Origin: a virus
Direction: 5' to 3' (one strand)
Length of the DNA: 46,787 nucleotides
IMG/VR virus record: IMGVR_UViG_3300009709_000007
Span: 1-46,787 of that record
This document shows, one piece after another, positions 124-46,787 of this stretch (its first letter is position 1; each line of letters begins with the position of its first letter). The notes under the pieces were generated by a model that had not been told where the DNA came from, did not search any database, and worked only from the letters and a program-made list of their open reading frames with translations. The position numbers and the translations under genes were made by a program.

Positions 124-146
124 TTTTCCGACGTGTTTGGTACAGT
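118..146 (+). promoter_or_regulatory. Candidate rightward promoter of module 1: weak -35 tagtga, 17-nt spacer, -10 TACAGT ending 7 nt before ATG 154
   Basis: Hexamers and spacing read from the sequence. The same geometry occurs at 29761-29789 before ATG 29796. Neither ATG has a Shine-Dalgarno. Confidence 0.3.
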
Positions 147-153
147 CCGCGCC

Positions 154-636
154 ATGGCATCCGAGCATGACATCCAACCCATAAAGGCTTCGCTAGTCGC
201 AGACCTGGTGGGACTCATCAACATCAACTTGGCCGACCTACTGTCGATCAAGGCGATTGCATGCCCGACGTGCGACGGCGCTTGTCAGGTGGGCACGATG
301 CAGGATGAGACCTTGACCACCTGTGCTACCTGCGGCGGCGTGGGGGCGGTCGAGCAGTTTGTCTTCGATATGCCGATGCTGAAGTCGATCCGGTTCGGCC
401 GATTGATCGAGGGCTGGGACGTCAAACAGGGCCAAATCGTCCCCAAGATGCGCAGTAAAACCGCTGCCTACGCCACGTTGGTCAAGCTGTTGGGCTTCGA
501 CAAGGCTGTGCTGGAAATCGCCAACGGTGCCGATTTCGCCGAATCGCTGTCCGAAGCCCAACGTGCCGCATACGTGGAGCAGCTGAAAGAGCTAGCCGCA
601 GCGGGCGCGCTTGATCAGATGGGTAAGCGCGCATGA
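154..636 (+). CDS. terS: Putative terminase small subunit with a CxxC...CxxCxGxG zinc-finger motif
   Basis: First gene of the structural operon, upstream of terL. The C-terminal MRSKTAAYATLVKLLGF resembles small terminases (recall only). Motifs CPTCDGAC and CATCGGVG are present. I trimmed the track start GTG 133 to ATG 154 by analogy with the paralogous junction at 29796. Confidence 0.55.
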   Translation: MASEHDIQPIKASLVADLVGLININLADLLSIKAIACPTCDGACQVGTMQDETLTTCATCGGVGAVEQFVFDMPMLKSIRFGRLIEGWDVKQGQIVPKMRSKTAAYATLVKLLGFDKAVLEIANGADFAESLSEAQRAAYVEQLKELAAAGALDQMGKRA

Positions 637-9524: not shown

Positions 9525-9553
9525 GGGCAGTTCCTCAATGGGTTAGTGGGGTC

Positions 9554-9582
9554 ATCTTATCGCTAGGTAATCGCGTTGTCAA
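9554..9582 (-). promoter_or_regulatory. Sigma70-like promoter, conserved-spacer family
   Basis: The reverse complement reads gtgTTGACAacgcGATTACCTAGCGATAAGAT (17-nt spacer). Confidence 0.75.
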
Positions 9583-9652
9583 CACTTGAGGCGCGTTGCC
9601 GTGCAGTCAGTGTGAGGCTGCTAAAACCGTGCGGTAACGAATGGAGCCACGC

Positions 9653-10631: not shown

Positions 10632-11462
10632 TCATGACTTACCTCCGGCGCGCTCGAGTGCGGCAAAAAGGGCATCGCGCTCGCTACACCACGCCGCCGA
10701 CCGCGCCGACTCCGCCGCCGCCGACCGCGCCGACCACGCCGACCACGCCGCCGACCGCGCCGCCGACCACGCCGACCGCGCCGCCGACCGCGCCGCCGAC
10801 CGCGCCGACGCCGCCGACGCCGCCGCCGACCACGCCGCCGCCGACTCCGCCGCCGACTCCGCCGCCGACTCCGCCGCCGCCGACCACGCCGACCGCGCCG
10901 CCGACCGCGCCGCCGACCGCGCCGCCGACCGCGCCGCCGACAATTCGCATGTGTTGCCACCGGCGGCGGCCTCGTGTGCGCGGCGACCGACACCCAGCGC
11001 GGCGATAACGCCTTCGATTGCCTCATGCACGCCGTGGTCATGCTTCTTTTTCAGGAGCTCACTCAACGTGCCGAACTGCCGGTCAATACGATCAATGGCG
11101 ATCCAGTGCTGGACAGGCTCAAGATCAGCTCCCACCGGGATCCGCTTAGCCAGGTCAACATGGAAGTTGGCCCTGAGCTCCTGCGGAAGACCTTCGAACA
11201 TCGAATCCTGAAGGCGGATCAACCAGACGGGGAGTCCACGCGCTCCTGCCACCACCTCGTGCCAGTTGGCACCCGTGGTCGGTTCGATCTCGTGAGCAAA
11301 GCAGCCAACCGAGCAGCCCCGGAACTGGCCGGCGTCTACGTCACCGAACGTGCCGGCGACCAACATGTCAGCAGCAGCGTGCCGCTCGGCCTGGGCAACG
11401 TGAGTCGCCTTCAGCGCGGCATCGCCGAAGAAAGACAAATGGGACTTATTGGTAGTGGTCAT
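10632..11462 (-). CDS. Hypothetical protein: ~170-aa N-terminal domain plus ~85 residues of SAAX tetrapeptide repeats
   Basis: This is the only frame with a coherent non-repeat N-terminus, an RBS (aggaaa) and its own promoter (11491-11519). The repeat region reads SAARSAARSAARSAARSAWSAAAESAAESAAESAAAWSAA... Confidence 0.7.
   Translation of the reverse strand: MTTTNKSHLSFFGDAALKATHVAQAERHAAADMLVAGTFGDVDAGQFRGCSVGCFAHEIEPTTGANWHEVVAGARGLPVWLIRLQDSMFEGLPQELRANFHVDLAKRIPVGADLEPVQHWIAIDRIDRQFGTLSELLKKKHDHGVHEAIEGVIAALGVGRRAHEAAAGGNTCELSAARSAARSAARSAARSAWSAAAESAAESAAESAAAWSAAASAASARSAARSAARSAWSAARSAAWSAWSARSAAAESARSAAWCSERDALFAALERAGGKS
10684..10945. repeat. Tandem 12-bp (some 9-bp) GC-rich coding repeats
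   Basis: Units such as gccgccgaccgc repeat about 22 times. On the coding strand each unit is tcggcggcgcgg, which encodes SAAR. The track shows ORFs in four frames across the region because the repeats lack stop codons. Confidence 0.9.
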
Positions 11463-11490
11463 GGGGTTTCCTGTCTGTGAGTGTGTGACT

Positions 11491-11519
11491 ACTTTATCGA
11501 AAGGTAACTGCTATGTCAA
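11491..11519 (-). promoter_or_regulatory. Sigma70-like promoter, conserved-spacer family (drives the SAAX-repeat gene)
   Basis: The reverse complement reads gtgTTGACAtagcAGTTACCTTTCGATAAAGT (17-nt spacer). Confidence 0.7.
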
Positions 11520-11522
11520 CAC

Positions 11523-12550: not shown

Positions 12551-12582
12551 TGTGGGGGCGTCTAGCAGGTGAGTGTGGGCGT

Positions 12583-12611
12583 AGCTTACCGCTAGGTAAT
12601 CGGCATGTCAA
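12583..12611 (-). promoter_or_regulatory. Sigma70-like promoter, conserved-spacer family (drives cassette 2)
   Basis: The reverse complement reads gtgTTGACAtgccGATTACCTAGCGGTAAGCT. It has a 17-nt spacer and a perfect TTACC-tagc-GGTAA dyad. Confidence 0.75.
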
Positions 12612-12678
12612 CACCCCTAGAGCGCGGCATCGTGATATTCTCCCACTACATCAACCTTTAGCCCTTTGGAGCACCCTC

Positions 12679-25119: not shown

Positions 25120-25355
25120 GCGTGGGTGTCTCCGGCGGTGGGTGGGCGGATCATCTCGGCGGCGTCGTGGCGATGGTCGCCGCGGGACAGGTAGTAGCCG
25201 TGGGCGGCCAGCAGCAGGAAGGCGATCAGCTTGCGGTGCTCGTGCAGGGCCTGGTCGGCGCGATTGGCGAAGTGCCAGGCCCGGCGAAGGTCCGCGACAG
25301 CCTGCTGGTCGATCCAGGAGGCAAGGCCGTGCCGCAACGTGGTGATCGTCTTCAT
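25116..25355 (-). CDS. Hypothetical protein, candidate leaderless gene
   Basis: ATG 25355 (MKTITTL) lies 6 nt downstream of the -10 of promoter 25362-25390. No Shine-Dalgarno is present. Confidence 0.5.
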   Translation of the reverse strand: MKTITTLRHGLASWIDQQAVADLRRAWHFANRADQALHEHRKLIAFLLLAAHGYYLSRGDHRHDAAEMIRPPTAGDTHA

Positions 25356-25361
25356 GGGCAA

Positions 25362-25390
25362 AGGATAGTCCTAGGTAACCGGGATGTCAA
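25362..25390 (-). promoter_or_regulatory. Sigma70-like promoter, conserved-spacer family (internal to the replication module)
   Basis: The reverse complement reads gtgTTGACAtcccGGTTACCTAGGACTATCCT (17-nt spacer), then ttgccc, then ATG. Confidence 0.7.
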
Positions 25391-25440
25391 CACTTAGCGC
25401 GAACGGATCGCACCGCCGCGCCGAGTGTAGACGAACGCCC

Positions 25441-26379: not shown

Positions 26380-26600
26380 GCGTCACCCCGCGGCACATAG
26401 GGTATCAGCAACTCCACGAATTCCTTAGCGTTCTCTCGCAAGCAGGAAATCAGCGAATCTTCATCGATTTCACCGTACACGGTGATCGATCCGAGCAGCG
26501 CGCGGAACTTGGCATCTTCAGCCAGCTGCGCCGCTTTCTTCGCGTCCAGCAGCTCTCGCAGCTTGTCTTCCTGCGCTACGGTCCAACGATCCTCAGCCAT
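26376..26600 (-). CDS. Hypothetical small protein
   Basis: Start trimmed to ATG 26600 (MAEDRWTV), which has a gaggtg RBS and lies downstream of the promoter at 26636-26663. Confidence 0.55.
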   Translation of the reverse strand: MAEDRWTVAQEDKLRELLDAKKAAQLAEDAKFRALLGSITVYGEIDEDSLISCLRENAKEFVELLIPYVPRGDA

Positions 26601-29085
26601 ATTGCACCTCGTTTGTGGGTTGTTCGGTAAGCGCGATCTTAGCATTTTCTTGCAGCATGTCAACAAAGGCCGGCGGGGCTTCGTAATAGCGCATACCCTT
26701 GGCATCGCAGCCCGCCTGCCAGCCGCGGGCCTTGAGCCAGCGGGCGACCTCCTGGGCCGAGAAGCGGCGCCCGGTGATCTGCACGTCCAGCGCGACGCGC
26801 AAGGCGGCGGACAGCACGCGCCAGTGGTTGCTGACGCGTGCGGCGGAGCGCTCGAGGATCGGCGGGAGGATGTCGTCCAGGTCCGACACCGGCAGGCCCA
26901 CGCCGTTGCGCATGGCCTCCTCGTTGAAGGCGCGCACCGCGTCGGAAGCTTCGCGCACGAGGGCCAGGTAATGCTCGTAGTCGGTGCAGAACCGCGCCTT
27001 AGCCTCGGCGACGATCTGGGCGACGTCCACGGCCCAGTTCGGGCTGGGCGACTGCATGACCCAGACGGGCATCAGGCGGCGCTCGCCGGTCTCGTCGCGG
27101 TAAATCTCCGGCTTGTTGGCCGTGCCGACCAGCGCGAAGCGGCGCGGGTGCGACTGCTCTTTTCGGCCGTAGGGCGTGCGGAAGACGTCCTGCGTGTCGG
27201 TGATCCAGTGCTTGACCTCTTCCACGTCGCGCTTGCCGTGCCCAGCCATCTCGGCGAGCTCGGCCACCGGGGAGCGCGCGGCGGCCATGGACATGCGACG
27301 CACGTCGCCGAACGGGAGCTCGGTCGGTGCCGGGAAACCCAGCGTCGTCGCGAACTGCTTGACCCACAGGCTTTTGCCCGGGCCCTGCTTGCCGATCAGC
27401 ACCGGCACGATAGGCGCTGGCGCGCCCGGGCGCAGCTGGCGCATGACCATGCCGGCGACGAACGCGCGTGCGGCGTAGGTCAGCGCCGTGCTGGGCAACG
27501 CGCCGAAAATGTCGGAGAACATCTCGTCCAGCCGATCCACGCCGTCCCACTGCGGCAGGGCCAGGATGGCATCCTTCCACGGGTCCACCGGATTGCTGGC
27601 AGCCAGGTGGTCGCGGGCGCGCTCCACGGTACCGTCGGAGACCTGCGAACAGCCCACGTGCGTCAGCGCGGCCAGCCACGCCGAGACGGAGGGGCCATCG
27701 GTAGGCAGCACCTCCTCGAGGCACACGTCCAGCGCCAGCTCGATATCGGCGGCACGCGCCAGGTGGTCCATGGCGAACATCACGTTGCGCAGCGAGTTAC
27801 GTTTCTTGTCGCCGCGGTCGGGCCATTCCTCGAAGGTGCCGCGCAGGCGCTCGGCGGCCAGTTCGAGCGGCGTGGATGGCTCATGCGCATGCGCGTCGGC
27901 GAACTCGAAGAATTCCTGAAGCTTGTGCGACCAGATGCCGGGCTTGCCGCGCATCGTGACGATTTCGGCCTTGCCAAGGTGTCCGGGCTTCAGGTCCGGG
28001 CGGAAGGTGTCGAAGGGGTCGGCGCACGTGCGCCCGAGCGCGCTGGAAAGGTTGTCCAGCACCTGCTCGACGGTGATAACCGGCTCGACGCCCGCGACGC
28101 GCAGCGGCCAGGACAGTGGCAGGCGGCGGTCACCCAGCGCGCGCAGCGCCAGCACGCCCAGGCGGTCGCCATCCTCGCGCCCAGCGGCCAGCGCGTTGCC
28201 GCGGTGATAGTCCAGCGCGACACGCTTGGCCTCCACGCGCAGGCGATCCTTGGCCTGGCGCACGGCCGCGTCGAAGCGACGGCGGGCGATGTCGGTAACG
28301 GCAGGCAGTTCCTGCACGTCCAGCCAGCCCTCGGGTGTCTTGTACCTGGCGACCTTGGTCAGGACTTCCGGTGCGCGGTGCACCCACGCCTGATCGGCGG
28401 GCACGTCACGCACGACACCCTCGGCCAGCTTGGGATGGGCTTCGAACATCAGCCGCGAGGACTGGTAGACCGTTGCGTCCGACAACTGGCGCACCAAGAG
28501 GGCACCCGAACGGCTGATCACGATGCGGCCGCGTCCGGCCGCCCACTGGTCCAGCTGGATACGCTTGCCCAGATCGGGAATGTCGGACCCCCGAGTCACG
28601 GGCACGTAGACATGCACGCCGCGTAGGCCGCGGCCACCGACGAACGACGAGGACGAGGGGCGCGCGGCGCGCGCGACGTGGCGCAGCCACGGTGAGGTGG
28701 CCTCCAAGGCGTCCAGAACGTCCGCAACCGTGTTGTAGACACCCGTGTCGGTGTCCACGTCGATTGGGAAGAATGCAGGCCCATCGAGGTAGCGAAAGGC
28801 TTCATTGGTCCGAGCGACGGCCTGAGGATTGAAGTCGGCGCCCTTGCGCGTCGTCAGCGGCGTGTCGCCCACGAGCGGCACGCCCAGGGTGATAGCCTGG
28901 TGGTCCGTAAGGGAGTCCAGCAGTGTGCGCAGACCGTCCAAGTCGGGCACTTCGCGAATGCTCGCGTGGCCCTGGGTCATGTGGGCAATGGCGGAACTCG
29001 TAATGTTTCCGCTGTCGTTCAGTTCAAAAGTTTTGGTCATCTCGCAGGAAGCGGAGGTGACGACTGTCAAGCGTGGGCTTGCCAT
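26593..29085 (-). CDS. DNA primase/helicase, VirE (virulence-associated protein E)-like
   Basis: 830 aa. P-loop LIGKQGPGKSLW lies in the C-terminal half, and a large N-terminal domain is present. The size and its co-occurrence with PolA, DUF2815 and DUF2800-like genes fit VirE-type primases (recall). Confidence 0.75.
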   Translation of the reverse strand: MASPRLTVVTSASCEMTKTFELNDSGNITSSAIAHMTQGHASIREVPDLDGLRTLLDSLTDHQAITLGVPLVGDTPLTTRKGADFNPQAVARTNEAFRYLDGPAFFPIDVDTDTGVYNTVADVLDALEATSPWLRHVARAARPSSSSFVGGRGLRGVHVYVPVTRGSDIPDLGKRIQLDQWAAGRGRIVISRSGALLVRQLSDATVYQSSRLMFEAHPKLAEGVVRDVPADQAWVHRAPEVLTKVARYKTPEGWLDVQELPAVTDIARRRFDAAVRQAKDRLRVEAKRVALDYHRGNALAAGREDGDRLGVLALRALGDRRLPLSWPLRVAGVEPVITVEQVLDNLSSALGRTCADPFDTFRPDLKPGHLGKAEIVTMRGKPGIWSHKLQEFFEFADAHAHEPSTPLELAAERLRGTFEEWPDRGDKKRNSLRNVMFAMDHLARAADIELALDVCLEEVLPTDGPSVSAWLAALTHVGCSQVSDGTVERARDHLAASNPVDPWKDAILALPQWDGVDRLDEMFSDIFGALPSTALTYAARAFVAGMVMRQLRPGAPAPIVPVLIGKQGPGKSLWVKQFATTLGFPAPTELPFGDVRRMSMAAARSPVAELAEMAGHGKRDVEEVKHWITDTQDVFRTPYGRKEQSHPRRFALVGTANKPEIYRDETGERRLMPVWVMQSPSPNWAVDVAQIVAEAKARFCTDYEHYLALVREASDAVRAFNEEAMRNGVGLPVSDLDDILPPILERSAARVSNHWRVLSAALRVALDVQITGRRFSAQEVARWLKARGWQAGCDAKGMRYYEAPPAFVDMLQENAKIALTEQPTNEVQYG
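26636..26663 (-). promoter_or_regulatory. Sigma70-like promoter embedded in the 3' end of the primase gene
   Basis: The reverse complement reads TTGACA-tgctgcaagaaaatgc(16)-TAAGAT. It lacks the conserved TTACC spacer motif. Confidence 0.55.
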
Positions 29086-29439: not shown

Positions 29440-29466
29440 AGGAGTCCTTGGTTTGAGTGCGCGATT

Positions 29467-29495
29467 ACAATACATGCAACCATCTTAGCGGTCAA
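29467..29495 (-). promoter_or_regulatory. Sigma70-like leftward promoter of the replication module
   Basis: The reverse complement reads TTGACC-gctaagatggttgcatg(17)-TATTGT. It lies just left of the AT-rich element. Confidence 0.6.
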
Positions 29496-29504
29496 CCACG
29501 TAAC

Positions 29505-29761
29505 CGTCTCGTCTATCGTGAACTTCCATCTCATCACCATCTTGACCAAATCTTTAGGAAAGACAGAGGAACAGAGGATATTTTCTACTTTCTTATATTT
29601 AATATATTTCTATAAATAGTAGTGTAGGGATAGATATTTATATATATACAGGTGTTTTCGCATATAGAGAAAAGTTTGAAGAATCGTCATCTGTCCTCTG
29701 TTCGTCTGTTCGTCTGTTACATTTGAAACTAATTCAAACACGCGTTTGAGACCAAAGTAGT
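29505..29761. repeat. AT-rich junction element, copy 1 (~257 bp, ~32% GC by hand count)
   Basis: Aligns without gaps to 46531-46785. Positions 29540-29761 are identical to 46566-46785 except for one extra TA. It contains inverted 8-mer iterons, a (TA)5 run and a TTTGAA-N5-TTCAAA dyad. Confidence 0.95.
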
Positions 29762-29789
29762 AGCTTCTGACGCCCGGCACGGATACGAT
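29761..29789 (+). promoter_or_regulatory. Candidate rightward promoter of module 3: weak -35 tagctt, 17-nt spacer, -10 TACGAT ending 6 nt before ATG 29796
   Basis: Same geometry as 118-146. No Shine-Dalgarno precedes the ATG. Confidence 0.3.
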
Positions 29790-29795
29790 TGGCGC

Positions 29796-30179
29796 ATGGA
29801 CACCCTGCGCCTCGACAACGACTCTTGGGACCTCACGCTGGACGTCTGGGGCAACCTGGCGACGGCCGGTGACGCTACACCCGAGTCAGAGAGCACAGGA
29901 CCGGGCATGCGTCTCGCGCAAGACGTCGCCTGTCGCGTGCGGTCGTGGAAGGGCGAGGTGTATTTCGACACGGCACAGGGCATTGACTATCCGCGCTACC
30001 TCGGCGGCCCGCCCAACCTGTCACTGCTTCAGGCGGCCTTCGCGCAGGAAGCGCTCAACGTGCCCGGCTGCTTGACCGCGTTGCCCGACTTCCACTTCAT
30101 CGGCGGATCGGATCGAGCGGTCACAGGCACCATCACACTATCCGATACGGCCGGCAACGGCTCGCAGGTGACGCTATGA
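29796..30179 (+). CDS. Putative baseplate/tail protein
   Basis: 127 aa, first gene of the tail module. The N-terminal pattern (DNDSWDLTLD..GNLA..) resembles small baseplate proteins by recall. Confidence 0.4.
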   Translation: MDTLRLDNDSWDLTLDVWGNLATAGDATPESESTGPGMRLAQDVACRVRSWKGEVYFDTAQGIDYPRYLGGPPNLSLLQAAFAQEALNVPGCLTALPDFHFIGGSDRAVTGTITLSDTAGNGSQVTL

Positions 30180-45281: not shown

Positions 45282-46471
45282 GACTTATTCGCGTACTTTT
45301 CGAAGATCAGCGCAACGTCGCCCGGGTTGGACTTCGTGACGGCAGTGATCGTCTGCGACGACGCCGAGCGCTTGACCAGTGAGTCCCGCACCTCGGCAGG
45401 AATGGCATGTAAGGCGTCGGAAAGCGCGCAGGCGCGCAGCAGATCGGTGCGGCCAAGGGCTAGAAGGGTCAGGCCTGCATCCTTGTCGTTGATCCACATC
45501 TGGCGCCCCTGGGACGTCTTCAGGGTCAGTCCGGCATGGCCGGTCTTGACCAAGGCGGCTACGCGTTCCTCAATGTCCTCCTGGAAGTTCTTGAAGGCCG
45601 TGCGCATCGACCACAGGGTGACTACCTCGTCGTCGGTCATGTCGTGCAGGCTCGTCGGCTCGGCGTAGGCCTTCAGCGCGGCGGCGGCGAACTGGTTGAC
45701 CACGCCGCAGCGCGCCTTGGCTCGGCAGTAGCGACAATGGTCGCCCGGCACAGGTGTCGTGTGGTTCGGGTCGCTGGCTGTGGCCCGATCGACATGATCC
45801 GCTTCAATGGCGAGCCGGCCGCGCGCGTCCTCTAGCCAGGTCCCAGGCAGTTCCAGCACTACACCCGGCGTGCCGATGTGGCAGCGGGGCTGGTACACGG
45901 CGAGCAACACGCGCTCGGGCGTGAGGCCCGTCTGCTCGATAGCAGCGATGGCGTAGGCCTCAAGCTGCTTGTTCGGCGACTCGACAGTCCCGACGTCCAC
46001 GCTGGCGAACCCGTACTTGTAGTCCACCACAATCAGCGTCTTGGTGCTGGCGATCCAGATCAGGCAATCAGCCGTACCGAACAGTTGATCGTGAATGGAC
46101 GGCGCGGCCACCTTGTGCTCGACCGTGACAAAAGCATCGGCCGCCGACCCGATCAGCCCGATGATGAAGTCCCGGTAGCCCATGCCATGCCGGCGCAGGT
46201 CGGCGTCCCATTCTTCGAGCGTCTGCCCTTTGGGATCGAAGCCCTCCGGGAAGGCTTTGCGCGGCGGCACGTCTCCACGCTGGTGCCCCGGGAGCCGAAA
46301 GTGCTGCTTGACGTAGAACTCGGCGACCTCGTGGGCCTCCGTCCCTTCCGCTGCCGCAGGTGACGGCTTGTCGGGCATTCCTGCACTAAGGGGTACAGAA
46401 ACGGGGCATATCGCCCAACGTGCGCGTGACGAAAACGAGAGCTGGGAGTGGGTCGGTGCGGGATGGGTCAT
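45278..46471 (-). CDS. PD-(D/E)XK nuclease, DUF2800/Cas4-like
   Basis: 397 aa. GTADCLIW...VVDYKYG matches a D...(D/E)xK core. The C-terminal Cys cluster is CRYCRAKARC. It is the first gene of module 4. Confidence 0.75.
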   Translation of the reverse strand: MTHPAPTHSQLSFSSRARWAICPVSVPLSAGMPDKPSPAAAEGTEAHEVAEFYVKQHFRLPGHQRGDVPPRKAFPEGFDPKGQTLEEWDADLRRHGMGYRDFIIGLIGSAADAFVTVEHKVAAPSIHDQLFGTADCLIWIASTKTLIVVDYKYGFASVDVGTVESPNKQLEAYAIAAIEQTGLTPERVLLAVYQPRCHIGTPGVVLELPGTWLEDARGRLAIEADHVDRATASDPNHTTPVPGDHCRYCRAKARCGVVNQFAAAALKAYAEPTSLHDMTDDEVVTLWSMRTAFKNFQEDIEERVAALVKTGHAGLTLKTSQGRQMWINDKDAGLTLLALGRTDLLRACALSDALHAIPAEVRDSLVKRSASSQTITAVTKSNPGDVALIFEKYANKS

Positions 46472-46512
46472 AGGGATGGCCTGTTTATGGTTATAGAGAT
46501 CGCCGTATGCGT

Positions 46513-46541
46513 AGTGTACTCGTTCCTTATCGTCTCGTCAA
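46513..46541 (-). promoter_or_regulatory. Sigma70-like leftward promoter of module 4
   Basis: The reverse complement reads TTGACG-agacgataaggaacgag(17)-TACACT. The -35 lies in the divergent left edge of the AT-rich element. Confidence 0.55.
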
Positions 46542-46785
46542 TCATGAATCGCCATCTTAGCACCTTCTTGACCAAATCTTTAGGAAAGACAGAGGAACAG
46601 AGGATATTTTCTACTTTCTTATATTTAATATATTTCTATAAATAGTAGTGTAGGGATAGATATTTATATATACAGGTGTTTTCGCATATAGAGAAAAGTT
46701 TGAAGAATCGTCATCTGTCCTCTGTTCGTCTGTTCGTCTGTTACATTTGAAACTAATTCAAACACGCGTTTGAGACCAAAGTAGT
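46531..46785. repeat. AT-rich junction element, copy 2 (255 bp; its right half is repeated as bases 1-121)
   Basis: Gap-free alignment to 29505-29761 at offset 17026, changing to 17024 after a (TA)4 versus (TA)5 difference. The last ~220 bp are otherwise identical. Confidence 0.95.
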
Positions 46786-46787
46786 GA

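Follow-up and report, generated by a model that had tools for sequence, protein, structure and literature searches.

A candidate replication origin of short inverted iterons around an AT-rich core, and a primase-helicase as its putative initiator, in a Bcep781-like phage

At both points where the operons of a small phage genome diverge, the same AT-rich element is found, bracketed by short repeats in inverted orientation. What does such an element do, and which protein reads it? The question is raised by IMG/VR virus record IMGVR_UViG_3300009709_000007 (hereafter the window: the whole stretch of 46,787 nt that was analysed), which is a complete phage genome, assembled circularly, of a Bcep781-like small myovirus (subfamily Kantovirinae). 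A preliminary description of this DNA had offered an iteron-type origin or a regulator-binding operator array as equally suitable readings. Comparison with relatives leads us to favour a replication origin of the self-loading SF3 helicase-initiator type, as known for the Rep proteins of Staphylococcus aureus pathogenicity islands (SaPIs) and for P4 alpha; we put the probability of this reading at roughly 0.62.

The element is present in two copies, and its parts are located as follows (a strand is given where one applies).

29505-29763: junction element copy 1, flanked by the replication operon (leftward) and the baseplate/tail operon (rightward)
46531-46787, continuing into 1-123: junction element copy 2, flanked by the exonuclease/lysis operon (leftward) and the terminase/head operon (rightward)
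29505-29514, plus strand: degenerate iteron-like doublet CGTCTCGTCT at the left border
29562-29578, minus strand: left iteron array of two units (on the top strand, ACAGAGGA twice at 29563-29578)
29579-29686: AT-rich core of ~108 bp, the proposed unwinding region, with the lowest GC in the genome
29687-29719, plus strand: right iteron array of four units, TCATCTGTC, TCCTCTGTT, TCGTCTGTT and TCGTCTGTT
46588-46604, minus strand: left iteron array of copy 2
46711-46743 (terminal duplicate: 47-79), plus strand: right iteron array of copy 2

Over ~235 bp the copies are near-identical, their (TA)n runs differing in length by a single TA; in the left 30 bp of the element identity between them is ~65%. 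The CGTCTCGTCT doublet, already reported at the left border and confirmed here, is kept in copy 2; there the -35 of the leftward-reading promoter overlaps with it. Across the core, two ACAGAGGA units are opposed to four TC(N)TCTGT units, and the 16-nt arms are 94% complementary with 115 nt between them. The inverted arrays around an AT core are thus real and occupy 29562-29719. Their unit count had to be revised on one side only: the two left units and the three right ones (TCCTCTGTT, TCGTCTGTT, TCGTCTGTT at 29694-29718) stand, but the latter are preceded by a degenerate fourth, TCATCTGTC, at 29687-29695, giving right-array spacings of 7, 8 and 8 nt. The arms do enclose the most AT-rich DNA of the window. 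The core is the genome GC minimum, with a GC fraction of 0.33 over 29500-29699 and of 0.21 in the lowest 100 nt, against ~0.62 elsewhere; it holds a (TA)5 run at 29639-29648, TATAAATAGTAGTG, and an ATATAGA box at 29662-29668. Treated as single-stranded DNA, the element folds with z = -3.35, merely reflecting the inverted arms, and Rfam gave no credible RNA family in it.

Is the arm motif a property of the element or of the genome at large? The 7-mer STCTGTT is not enriched genome-wide (13 matches versus 8.0 ± 3.1 expected; at least 13 in 7 of 100 shuffles), but its matches cluster strongly: all except two lie inside the element copies (11 of 13). After de-duplication of the genome, 10 of 16 matches to [CG]TCTGT[TC] fall within the two elements, ~1% of the sequence. 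Similarly, 14 of the 15 TCTGTCA matches in Bcep781 are in its two elements, with 2.9 expected genome-wide, and the inverted 6-mer count at junction 1 was reached in none of 200 flank shuffles. The enrichment that the preliminary description had proposed to look for exists as clustering in the elements and not as a genome-wide excess; a similar density elsewhere, which would have spoken against it, was not seen. The essential confinement of the motif to the elements counts against a regulator with a regulon, for which sites elsewhere would be expected. Since the two copies are near-identical, they constitute one observation within this genome, and real replication of the result has to come from relatives.

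Element DNA compared with 50,697 phage records gave chance matches only. The element evolves too fast for homology at the DNA level, so relatives were reached through flanking proteins, and their junctions were fetched from IMG/VR and JGI metagenomes via the flanking baseplate-wedge and primase genes; a locus scan with a single protein found nothing, and an alignment was required. In Bcep781, XapPhi5 and PQ43W, too, the junction element is present twice per genome; it is 260-530 bp long, and its copies are 92-100% identical. The layout recurs in more than 40 relatives and in every lineage: 2-4 short units followed by some 100-130 bp of AT-rich DNA and by 2-4 inverted units. Most of 37 relatives' junctions that were measured keep this architecture, with an inner distance of mostly 92-130 bp and a unit spacing of 7-9 nt (commonest 8). 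The sequence of the unit is lineage-specific.

(C/G)TCTGT: the window, L046 and XapPhi5
CGTCTGTA: among the relatives' lineages
CGTCAGT(AC): among the relatives' lineages
TC(C/T)TCCGTAC: for example PQ43W
TGTCAT or TCTGTCA: for example Bcep781
GGTGGGAT: among the relatives' lineages, with further units besides

Both arms of a junction always share one unit as its reverse complement, and they change together from lineage to lineage; of the core, length and AT-richness are kept and the sequence is not. Such coupled change of the arms is the hallmark of a sequence-specific binding protein that the phage itself encodes and that co-evolves with its sites. A second conserved feature is an ATATAG(A/G)AA box located 5-25 nt inside each arm (29662-29668 in the window; L005-L049). 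The boxes are mirror-symmetric, both reading outward, are often preceded by a G-run, and make a poor sigma-70 -10 since the final T is missing.

Which protein could bind the arms? The preliminary description listed a primase/helicase among the encoded proteins and recognised no obvious initiator; this view has to be given up, as the listed protein is itself the candidate, being of the VapE/SF3 type, related to SaPI Rep and equipped with a predicted C-terminal winged helix.

26593-29085, minus strand: primase-helicase of 830 aa, the proposed initiator, with a VapE/SF3 helicase domain at residues 512-724
26671-26883, minus strand: C-terminal winged helix (about residues 735-805), with the recognition helix at 777-786 and a wing that includes C793 (codon 26707-26709)

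The helicase domain matches Pfam PF05272 (E 5.8e-42), and the sole PDB sequence match found with phmmer is 7PDS, the SaPI1 Rep1-DNA complex (E 4.5e-21). The N-terminal half is a primase by PHROG family name (DNA primase) alone and matches no Pfam domain. Residues 696-830 were modelled in AlphaFold2 with 36 homologues; the model reached a mean pLDDT (predicted local distance difference test) of 87 and shows winged-helix topology, in the order helix-strand-helix-helix-hairpin, with a beta-hairpin wing at 790-802. Foldseek, run with the model against the PDB, ranks winged-helix DNA binders highest (MarR, PadR, ArsR, BlaI, forkhead and Cdt1), at weak E-values of 0.03-0.2. Among ten early proteins scanned with Pfam there was no helix-turn-helix regulator and no O- or Rep_3-like protein. 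Copy 1 of the element is located 420 bp upstream of the primase-helicase start, past a gene of 107 aa (in Bcep781, directly upstream), and copy 2 is 17 kb from the gene.

We aligned the units on the frame T-C-N-G-T, where N is the variable base, and compared this base with the columns of the primase alignment. The base was perfectly predicted by a single one of 814-818 columns, that of residue 793, with which the first wing strand ends (WQAG-C-DAKG).

Base T: residue 793 is C, T, S, Q or L
Base A: residue 793 is A or V
Base C: residue 793 is K

Mutual information in column 793 equals the label entropy, 1.58 bits, versus 1.39 for the runner-up (818 columns); with 23 sequences it is still the only perfect column, at 1.57 bits versus 1.18. 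T, A and C are all found again in primase clades II and III; clade I has T and A only. Permutation of the labels, either free or within the three clades, yielded a perfect column in 0 of 2000 trials. Arms of the TGTCA type pair with a wing that is shorter by 2 residues. As a control, conserved early protein families near the primase were examined in the same way: one gives no comparable column, and the perfect score of a second is trivial, with 11 residue types in 13 sequences. For prospective look-ups, homologues were taken from a full-length protein database search and the arms were read on their contigs. All five cases whose residues were already in the rule fit it.

P0003 and P0013: residue T, arms TCTGT
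P0010: residue A, arms TCAGT
P0052 and P0074: residue K, arms TCCGT/CCGG

Three further look-up contigs (P0039, P0090 and P0081) ended before the arms. A residue new to the rule, Leu (L132, CCTCTGT), pairs with T and leaves the partition unbroken.

A protein and a site of this kind are known from SaPIs. SaPI Reps load themselves as helicases and double as initiators, by means of a C-terminal winged helix that reads iterons of five or six nucleotides; in the origin these iterons flank an AT-rich centre, the conserved feature being at least two per side in opposite directions, and in SaPI5 a primase is fused to Rep (PMC9371898). The window offers a likeness to these traits: an SF3/VapE-type protein that matches SaPI1 Rep1 (the PDB 7PDS/7OLA system), primase and helicase fused as in PriRep5 of SaPI5, a predicted C-terminal winged helix, 2 + 4 opposed units around a 108-bp core of 21-33% GC, and lineage-specific iterons matched to their own Rep (for the window, in silico only). 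It differs in the period of its units (8 nt, range 7-9, versus repeats of 5-6 nt in SaPIs), in having two near-identical copies per genome, in being a virulent myovirus of Gram-negative bacteria rather than a satellite, and in the protein, where the N-terminal half is without a Pfam match and the likeness of the C-terminal domain to Rep was not recovered by Foldseek.

The order of primase, SF3 helicase and winged helix in one polypeptide is also that of P4 alpha and of pRN1 ORF904 (PMC2777425). The domain order of P4 alpha, in which the C-terminal winged helix binds the origin, matches that of the window protein (with the winged helix predicted and the primase half assigned by PHROG name); no sequence-level match of the window protein to P4 alpha was obtained, and P4 alpha differs in its DnaG-type primase and D5-type helicase. 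P4 has octamer iterons (TGTTCACC) in two separate cis elements, ori and crr, both of which are required; unlike the junction elements, these are not identical copies and are not at divergent promoters. The pRN1 ORF904 protein, SV40 large T antigen and papillomavirus E1 are self-contained initiator-helicases reading very short repeats in inverted sets, and for viral SF3 initiators such inverted sets let two hexamers load head to head beside AT-rich DNA. Their origin-binding domains are of another kind or, in pRN1, have no known site, and the inverted repeats of SV40 and E1 are contiguous, whereas those of the window are ~110 bp apart. The analogues named in the preliminary description, lambda ori and plasmid oriV, were wrongly chosen. 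Lambda ori, RK2 oriV and Rep_3 origins share with the proposed origin the placing of initiator-binding repeats beside an AT-rich unwinding region, but their iterons are 17-22 bp long, directly repeated (four or more) and confined to one side of the tract, in contrast to the short inverted units on both sides in the window, and their initiators O and TrfA have no helicase and recruit host DnaB. Short inverted units on both sides are the layout of self-loading SF3 systems, for example the SaPI ori (PMC9371898).

With element anatomy, conservation, joint arm change, protein homology, predicted fold and residue-base co-variation established, we infer binding, melting, helicase loading and firing of both copies in the following way. 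The units of 8-nt period would serve as iterons, read by the C-terminal winged helix of the 830-aa primase-helicase encoded beside copy 1. Multiple protomers on each inverted array would assemble into two hexamers facing in opposite directions across the ~108-bp AT core; the core would melt, the helicases would travel outward, and the fused primase domain would prime. Phage polymerase, a second helicase and the single-stranded DNA-binding protein would then take over. As a near-identical copy is present at each junction of divergent operons, replication of each of the four gene blocks would run the same way as its transcription. A tentative extension, in our estimate less likely than not, is that both copies are active: Kantovirinae, as virulent myoviruses, might replicate from twin homogenised origins with co-directional blocks, the dyad might allow half-genomes to invert between the copies with function kept, and the wing-residue-to-base code (K-C, A/V-A, T/S/C/Q-T) might be open to re-engineering.

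The weighing of other explanations requires a closer look at the transcription signals around the element and at the arrangement of the genome. Outside the arms the following features were found.

29467-29495, minus strand: leftward sigma-70-type promoter TTGACC-17-TATTGT of the replication operon, outside the arms
46513-46541, minus strand: leftward promoter of the exonuclease operon at copy 2, TTGACG-17-TACACT, a consensus match only
29784-29798, plus strand: -10-like TACGAT, 6 nt and the ATG (29796) of the baseplate-wedge gene, without Shine-Dalgarno and outside the arms
141-156, plus strand: TACAGT, 7 nt and the ATG (154) of the terminase-small-subunit-like gene
29722-29748 (copy 2: 46746-46772): overlapping palindromes TTTGAA-N5-TTCAAA and CAAAC-N4-GTTTG

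In relatives, TTGACA-N17-TAnnnT stands at the position of the leftward promoter. The starts at 29796 and 154 are probably leaderless: a TAnnnT ending 6-7 nt before the ATG, without Shine-Dalgarno, precedes the first genes of both late operons (28 of 35 starts compared among homologues, versus a 2% background), which suggests leaderless mRNAs for structural operons across the family. The best recognisable promoters are 40-70 bp outside the arms and directed outward. The palindromes, which are the same in both copies, sit between the right arm and the late promoter; none were seen in the relatives' junctions.

From the two junctions four gene blocks diverge.

Start 154, rightward: terminase/head block
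Start 29439, leftward: replication block
Start 29796, rightward: baseplate/tail block
Start 46471, leftward: exonuclease/lysis block

The nearest relatives of the window are the Xanthomonas phages XapPhi, NEB7 and PhiXhv, the Ralstonia phage PQ43W and the Burkholderia phages Bcep781, Bcep43, Bcep1 and BcepNY3, with DNA identity of only ~70-75% to the window even in the best-conserved genes. In the window (29440-29796; 46471-46787), as in Bcep781 and XapPhi5, the junctions are primase/baseplate and exonuclease/terminase small subunit (TerS), and in PQ43W-type genomes they are exonuclease/primase and TerS/baseplate (L003 16654-17393; 46590-47156/1-77). The two types are related by a half-genome inversion with breakpoints in both elements, which are still direct repeats. 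One PQ43W junction consequently joins two early operons and the other two late operons. Its elements are 100% identical over a 300-nt repeat core, and 91% identical in a further 55-nt block; as the element is the same at early/early and late/late junctions, it does not set early-versus-late expression.

Positions 1-123 of the window are identical to 46665-46787. This terminal overlap begins exactly at the (TA)n polymorphism and stops where the element copies diverge; the genome 'ends' are thus an assembly artefact of the two-copy repeat. Metagenomic contigs of many relatives likewise end at the junction element (L129, L131, L133-L138, L140). The presence of two copies accounts for the breaking or opening of assemblies of these phages here.

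An operator array, on which a dedicated phage regulator other than the primase-helicase would loop the junction and time the divergent operons, would account for the position of the element exactly between divergent operons at both junctions. Inverted sites ~115-135 bp apart resemble the repression loops of gal and lac, the ATATAG(A/G)AA box followed by the arms, outward on both sides, could be a promoter with downstream operators, and several small early proteins carry no assigned function. We nevertheless consider it unlikely. The best sigma-70-like and leaderless promoters are outside the arms, the motif is essentially confined to the two elements, the PQ43W element, being identical at both kinds of junction, cannot encode timing, and the early proteins scanned include no helix-turn-helix regulator. 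The co-varying residue, moreover, is in the primase-helicase, and conserved neighbouring small proteins gave no informative match. An origin is thus favoured over an operator array by three lines of evidence: co-variation of arm and wing residue, confinement of the motif to the elements, and promoters outside the arms. Of the two readings that the preliminary description had left level, the comparative evidence speaks for the origin; a regulatory or dual role keeps some probability. In one such role, the primase-helicase would bind the arms mainly for autoregulation or copy control by handcuffing of the copies, with initiation elsewhere or by recombination. Initiators often repress their own promoter, a copy of the element precedes the pri-rep operon, the two copies are identical, and the phage exonuclease and RusA suit recombination-dependent replication. 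However, copy 2 controls operons unrelated to replication, and a core kept in length and composition but not in sequence fits the need of an unwinding element and not that of a pure operator; this explanation, too, we hold to be quite unlikely.

Much less probable still is a packaging (pac) site, in which short boxes, repeated to either side of the cleaved region (compare P1 pac and SPP1 pacL/pacR), would be bound by TerS. Copy 2 adjoins a TerS-like gene, the assembly opens inside the element, and the layout has a superficial likeness to that of P1 pac, yet two such sites per genome would be odd, the assembly break, at which many relatives' contigs stop, is accounted for by the two-copy repeat, and the arms co-vary with the primase-helicase. 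The TerS-like protein itself (154-636) is, by alignment inspection, conserved irrespective of arm class, for example between L022 and L023 or the window and L007, and follows phylogeny; as an arm binder it is ruled out on these grounds. Least probable of all is that the dyad-symmetric repeats exist as a recombination hotspot to mediate module exchange or half-genome inversion. The inversion between PQ43W-type and window-type genomes does have its breakpoints in the elements, but it is rare in evolution, any long repeat with internal dyad symmetry permits it, no recombinase is associated with the element, and the lineage-specific joint change of the arms and the AT core would be left unexplained.

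Several observations weigh against the origin reading or blunt its evidence. The accessible literature, as far as searched, contains no experimental binding or initiation for any member of the phage family and nothing on the elements, as origins or otherwise; the Bcep781 genome description by Summer et al. (2006), which is outside this scope, may already mention the repeated intergenic regions. Binding by the primase-helicase would fit autoregulation equally. The mirrored ATATAG(A/G)AA box is unexplained by an origin and could be a promoter element. The SaPI Rep C-terminal domain was absent from the top 50 Foldseek matches of the modelled winged helix, whose E-values are weak, and the SaPI origin is just downstream of rep, whereas copy 1 of the window is upstream of the pri-rep operon and copy 2 is distant from it. 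As for the co-variation, residue and base are shared by descent among relatives, so that independent events are fewer than 23 and the association is partly confounded. One V case (P0088, L138) is ambiguous, K genomes L108 and L114 mix TCTGTA and TCCGTAC units, and our guess from chemistry that Leu would pair with A proved wrong (L132). DnaA boxes, considered as a general feature of the element, had to be dropped, since perfect ones are found in three lineages only (PQ43W, L043, L049/L081) and not in the window. Cumulative GC skew peaks at both junctions, with maxima and not minima, opposite to bacterial-type replication skew; it follows gene orientation throughout and is thus uninformative.

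Where DnaA boxes do occur, they are close to the element: all five perfect boxes (TTATCCACA) in 1.04 Mb of related loci are no more than 350 bp from an AT core (L003, which is PQ43W, 16943 and 46893; L043 2219; L049 2218 / L081 3108), with 0.4 expected. Individual junctions show further elaborations. In Bcep781 (L001 36761-36792, 16381-16412), three ATCTGTCA units form a third array, which adjoins the inverted pair on the side of the primase and is oriented like the far arm; its window equivalent is the degenerate CGTCTCGTCT only. The PhiXhv-5 junction (L004 29925-30185) contains a ~100 bp tandem duplication that takes in units of its own (TACAAGG / CCTTGT) together with AT-rich DNA. In the TerS-like protein there is a four-cysteine (CxxC...CxxC) zinc-ribbon insert with a loop of 20-43 residues among relatives.

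Two other repeat types were noted away from the junctions. A 40-nt family on the minus strand of the window (9546-9585, 11483-11522, 12575-12614 and 25354-25393) reads, as its reverse complement, GTGTTGACA-N17-TAAGAT, which comes close to a consensus sigma-70 promoter and has CCTAGC conserved in its spacer. Each copy precedes small minus-strand open reading frames, and three copies are inside the plus-strand structural block. Genes made of tandem repeats (9/12/15 nt, GCCGACCGC-type) encode Pro/Ala/Thr-rich proteins; one such region is at 10632-11462 of the window, on the minus strand, and relatives have such genes at other genome positions (L002 23829-24812; L003 853-1551 and 40372-41172).

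If the junction element is an origin, uncharacterised phages of Burkholderia, Xanthomonas and Ralstonia, several of which are in biocontrol development, would gain a defined origin together with its initiator. The family would also provide a natural series of matched initiator/iteron pairs in which one wing residue tracks one base, so that winged-helix origin recognition by SF3 primase-helicases would become directly testable: the substitution C793K should turn the preferred TCTGT into TCCGT. Twin origins at divergent junctions would be a simple model for avoiding conflicts between replication and transcription in a small genome, and the same arrangement would show how repeated origins stay identical.

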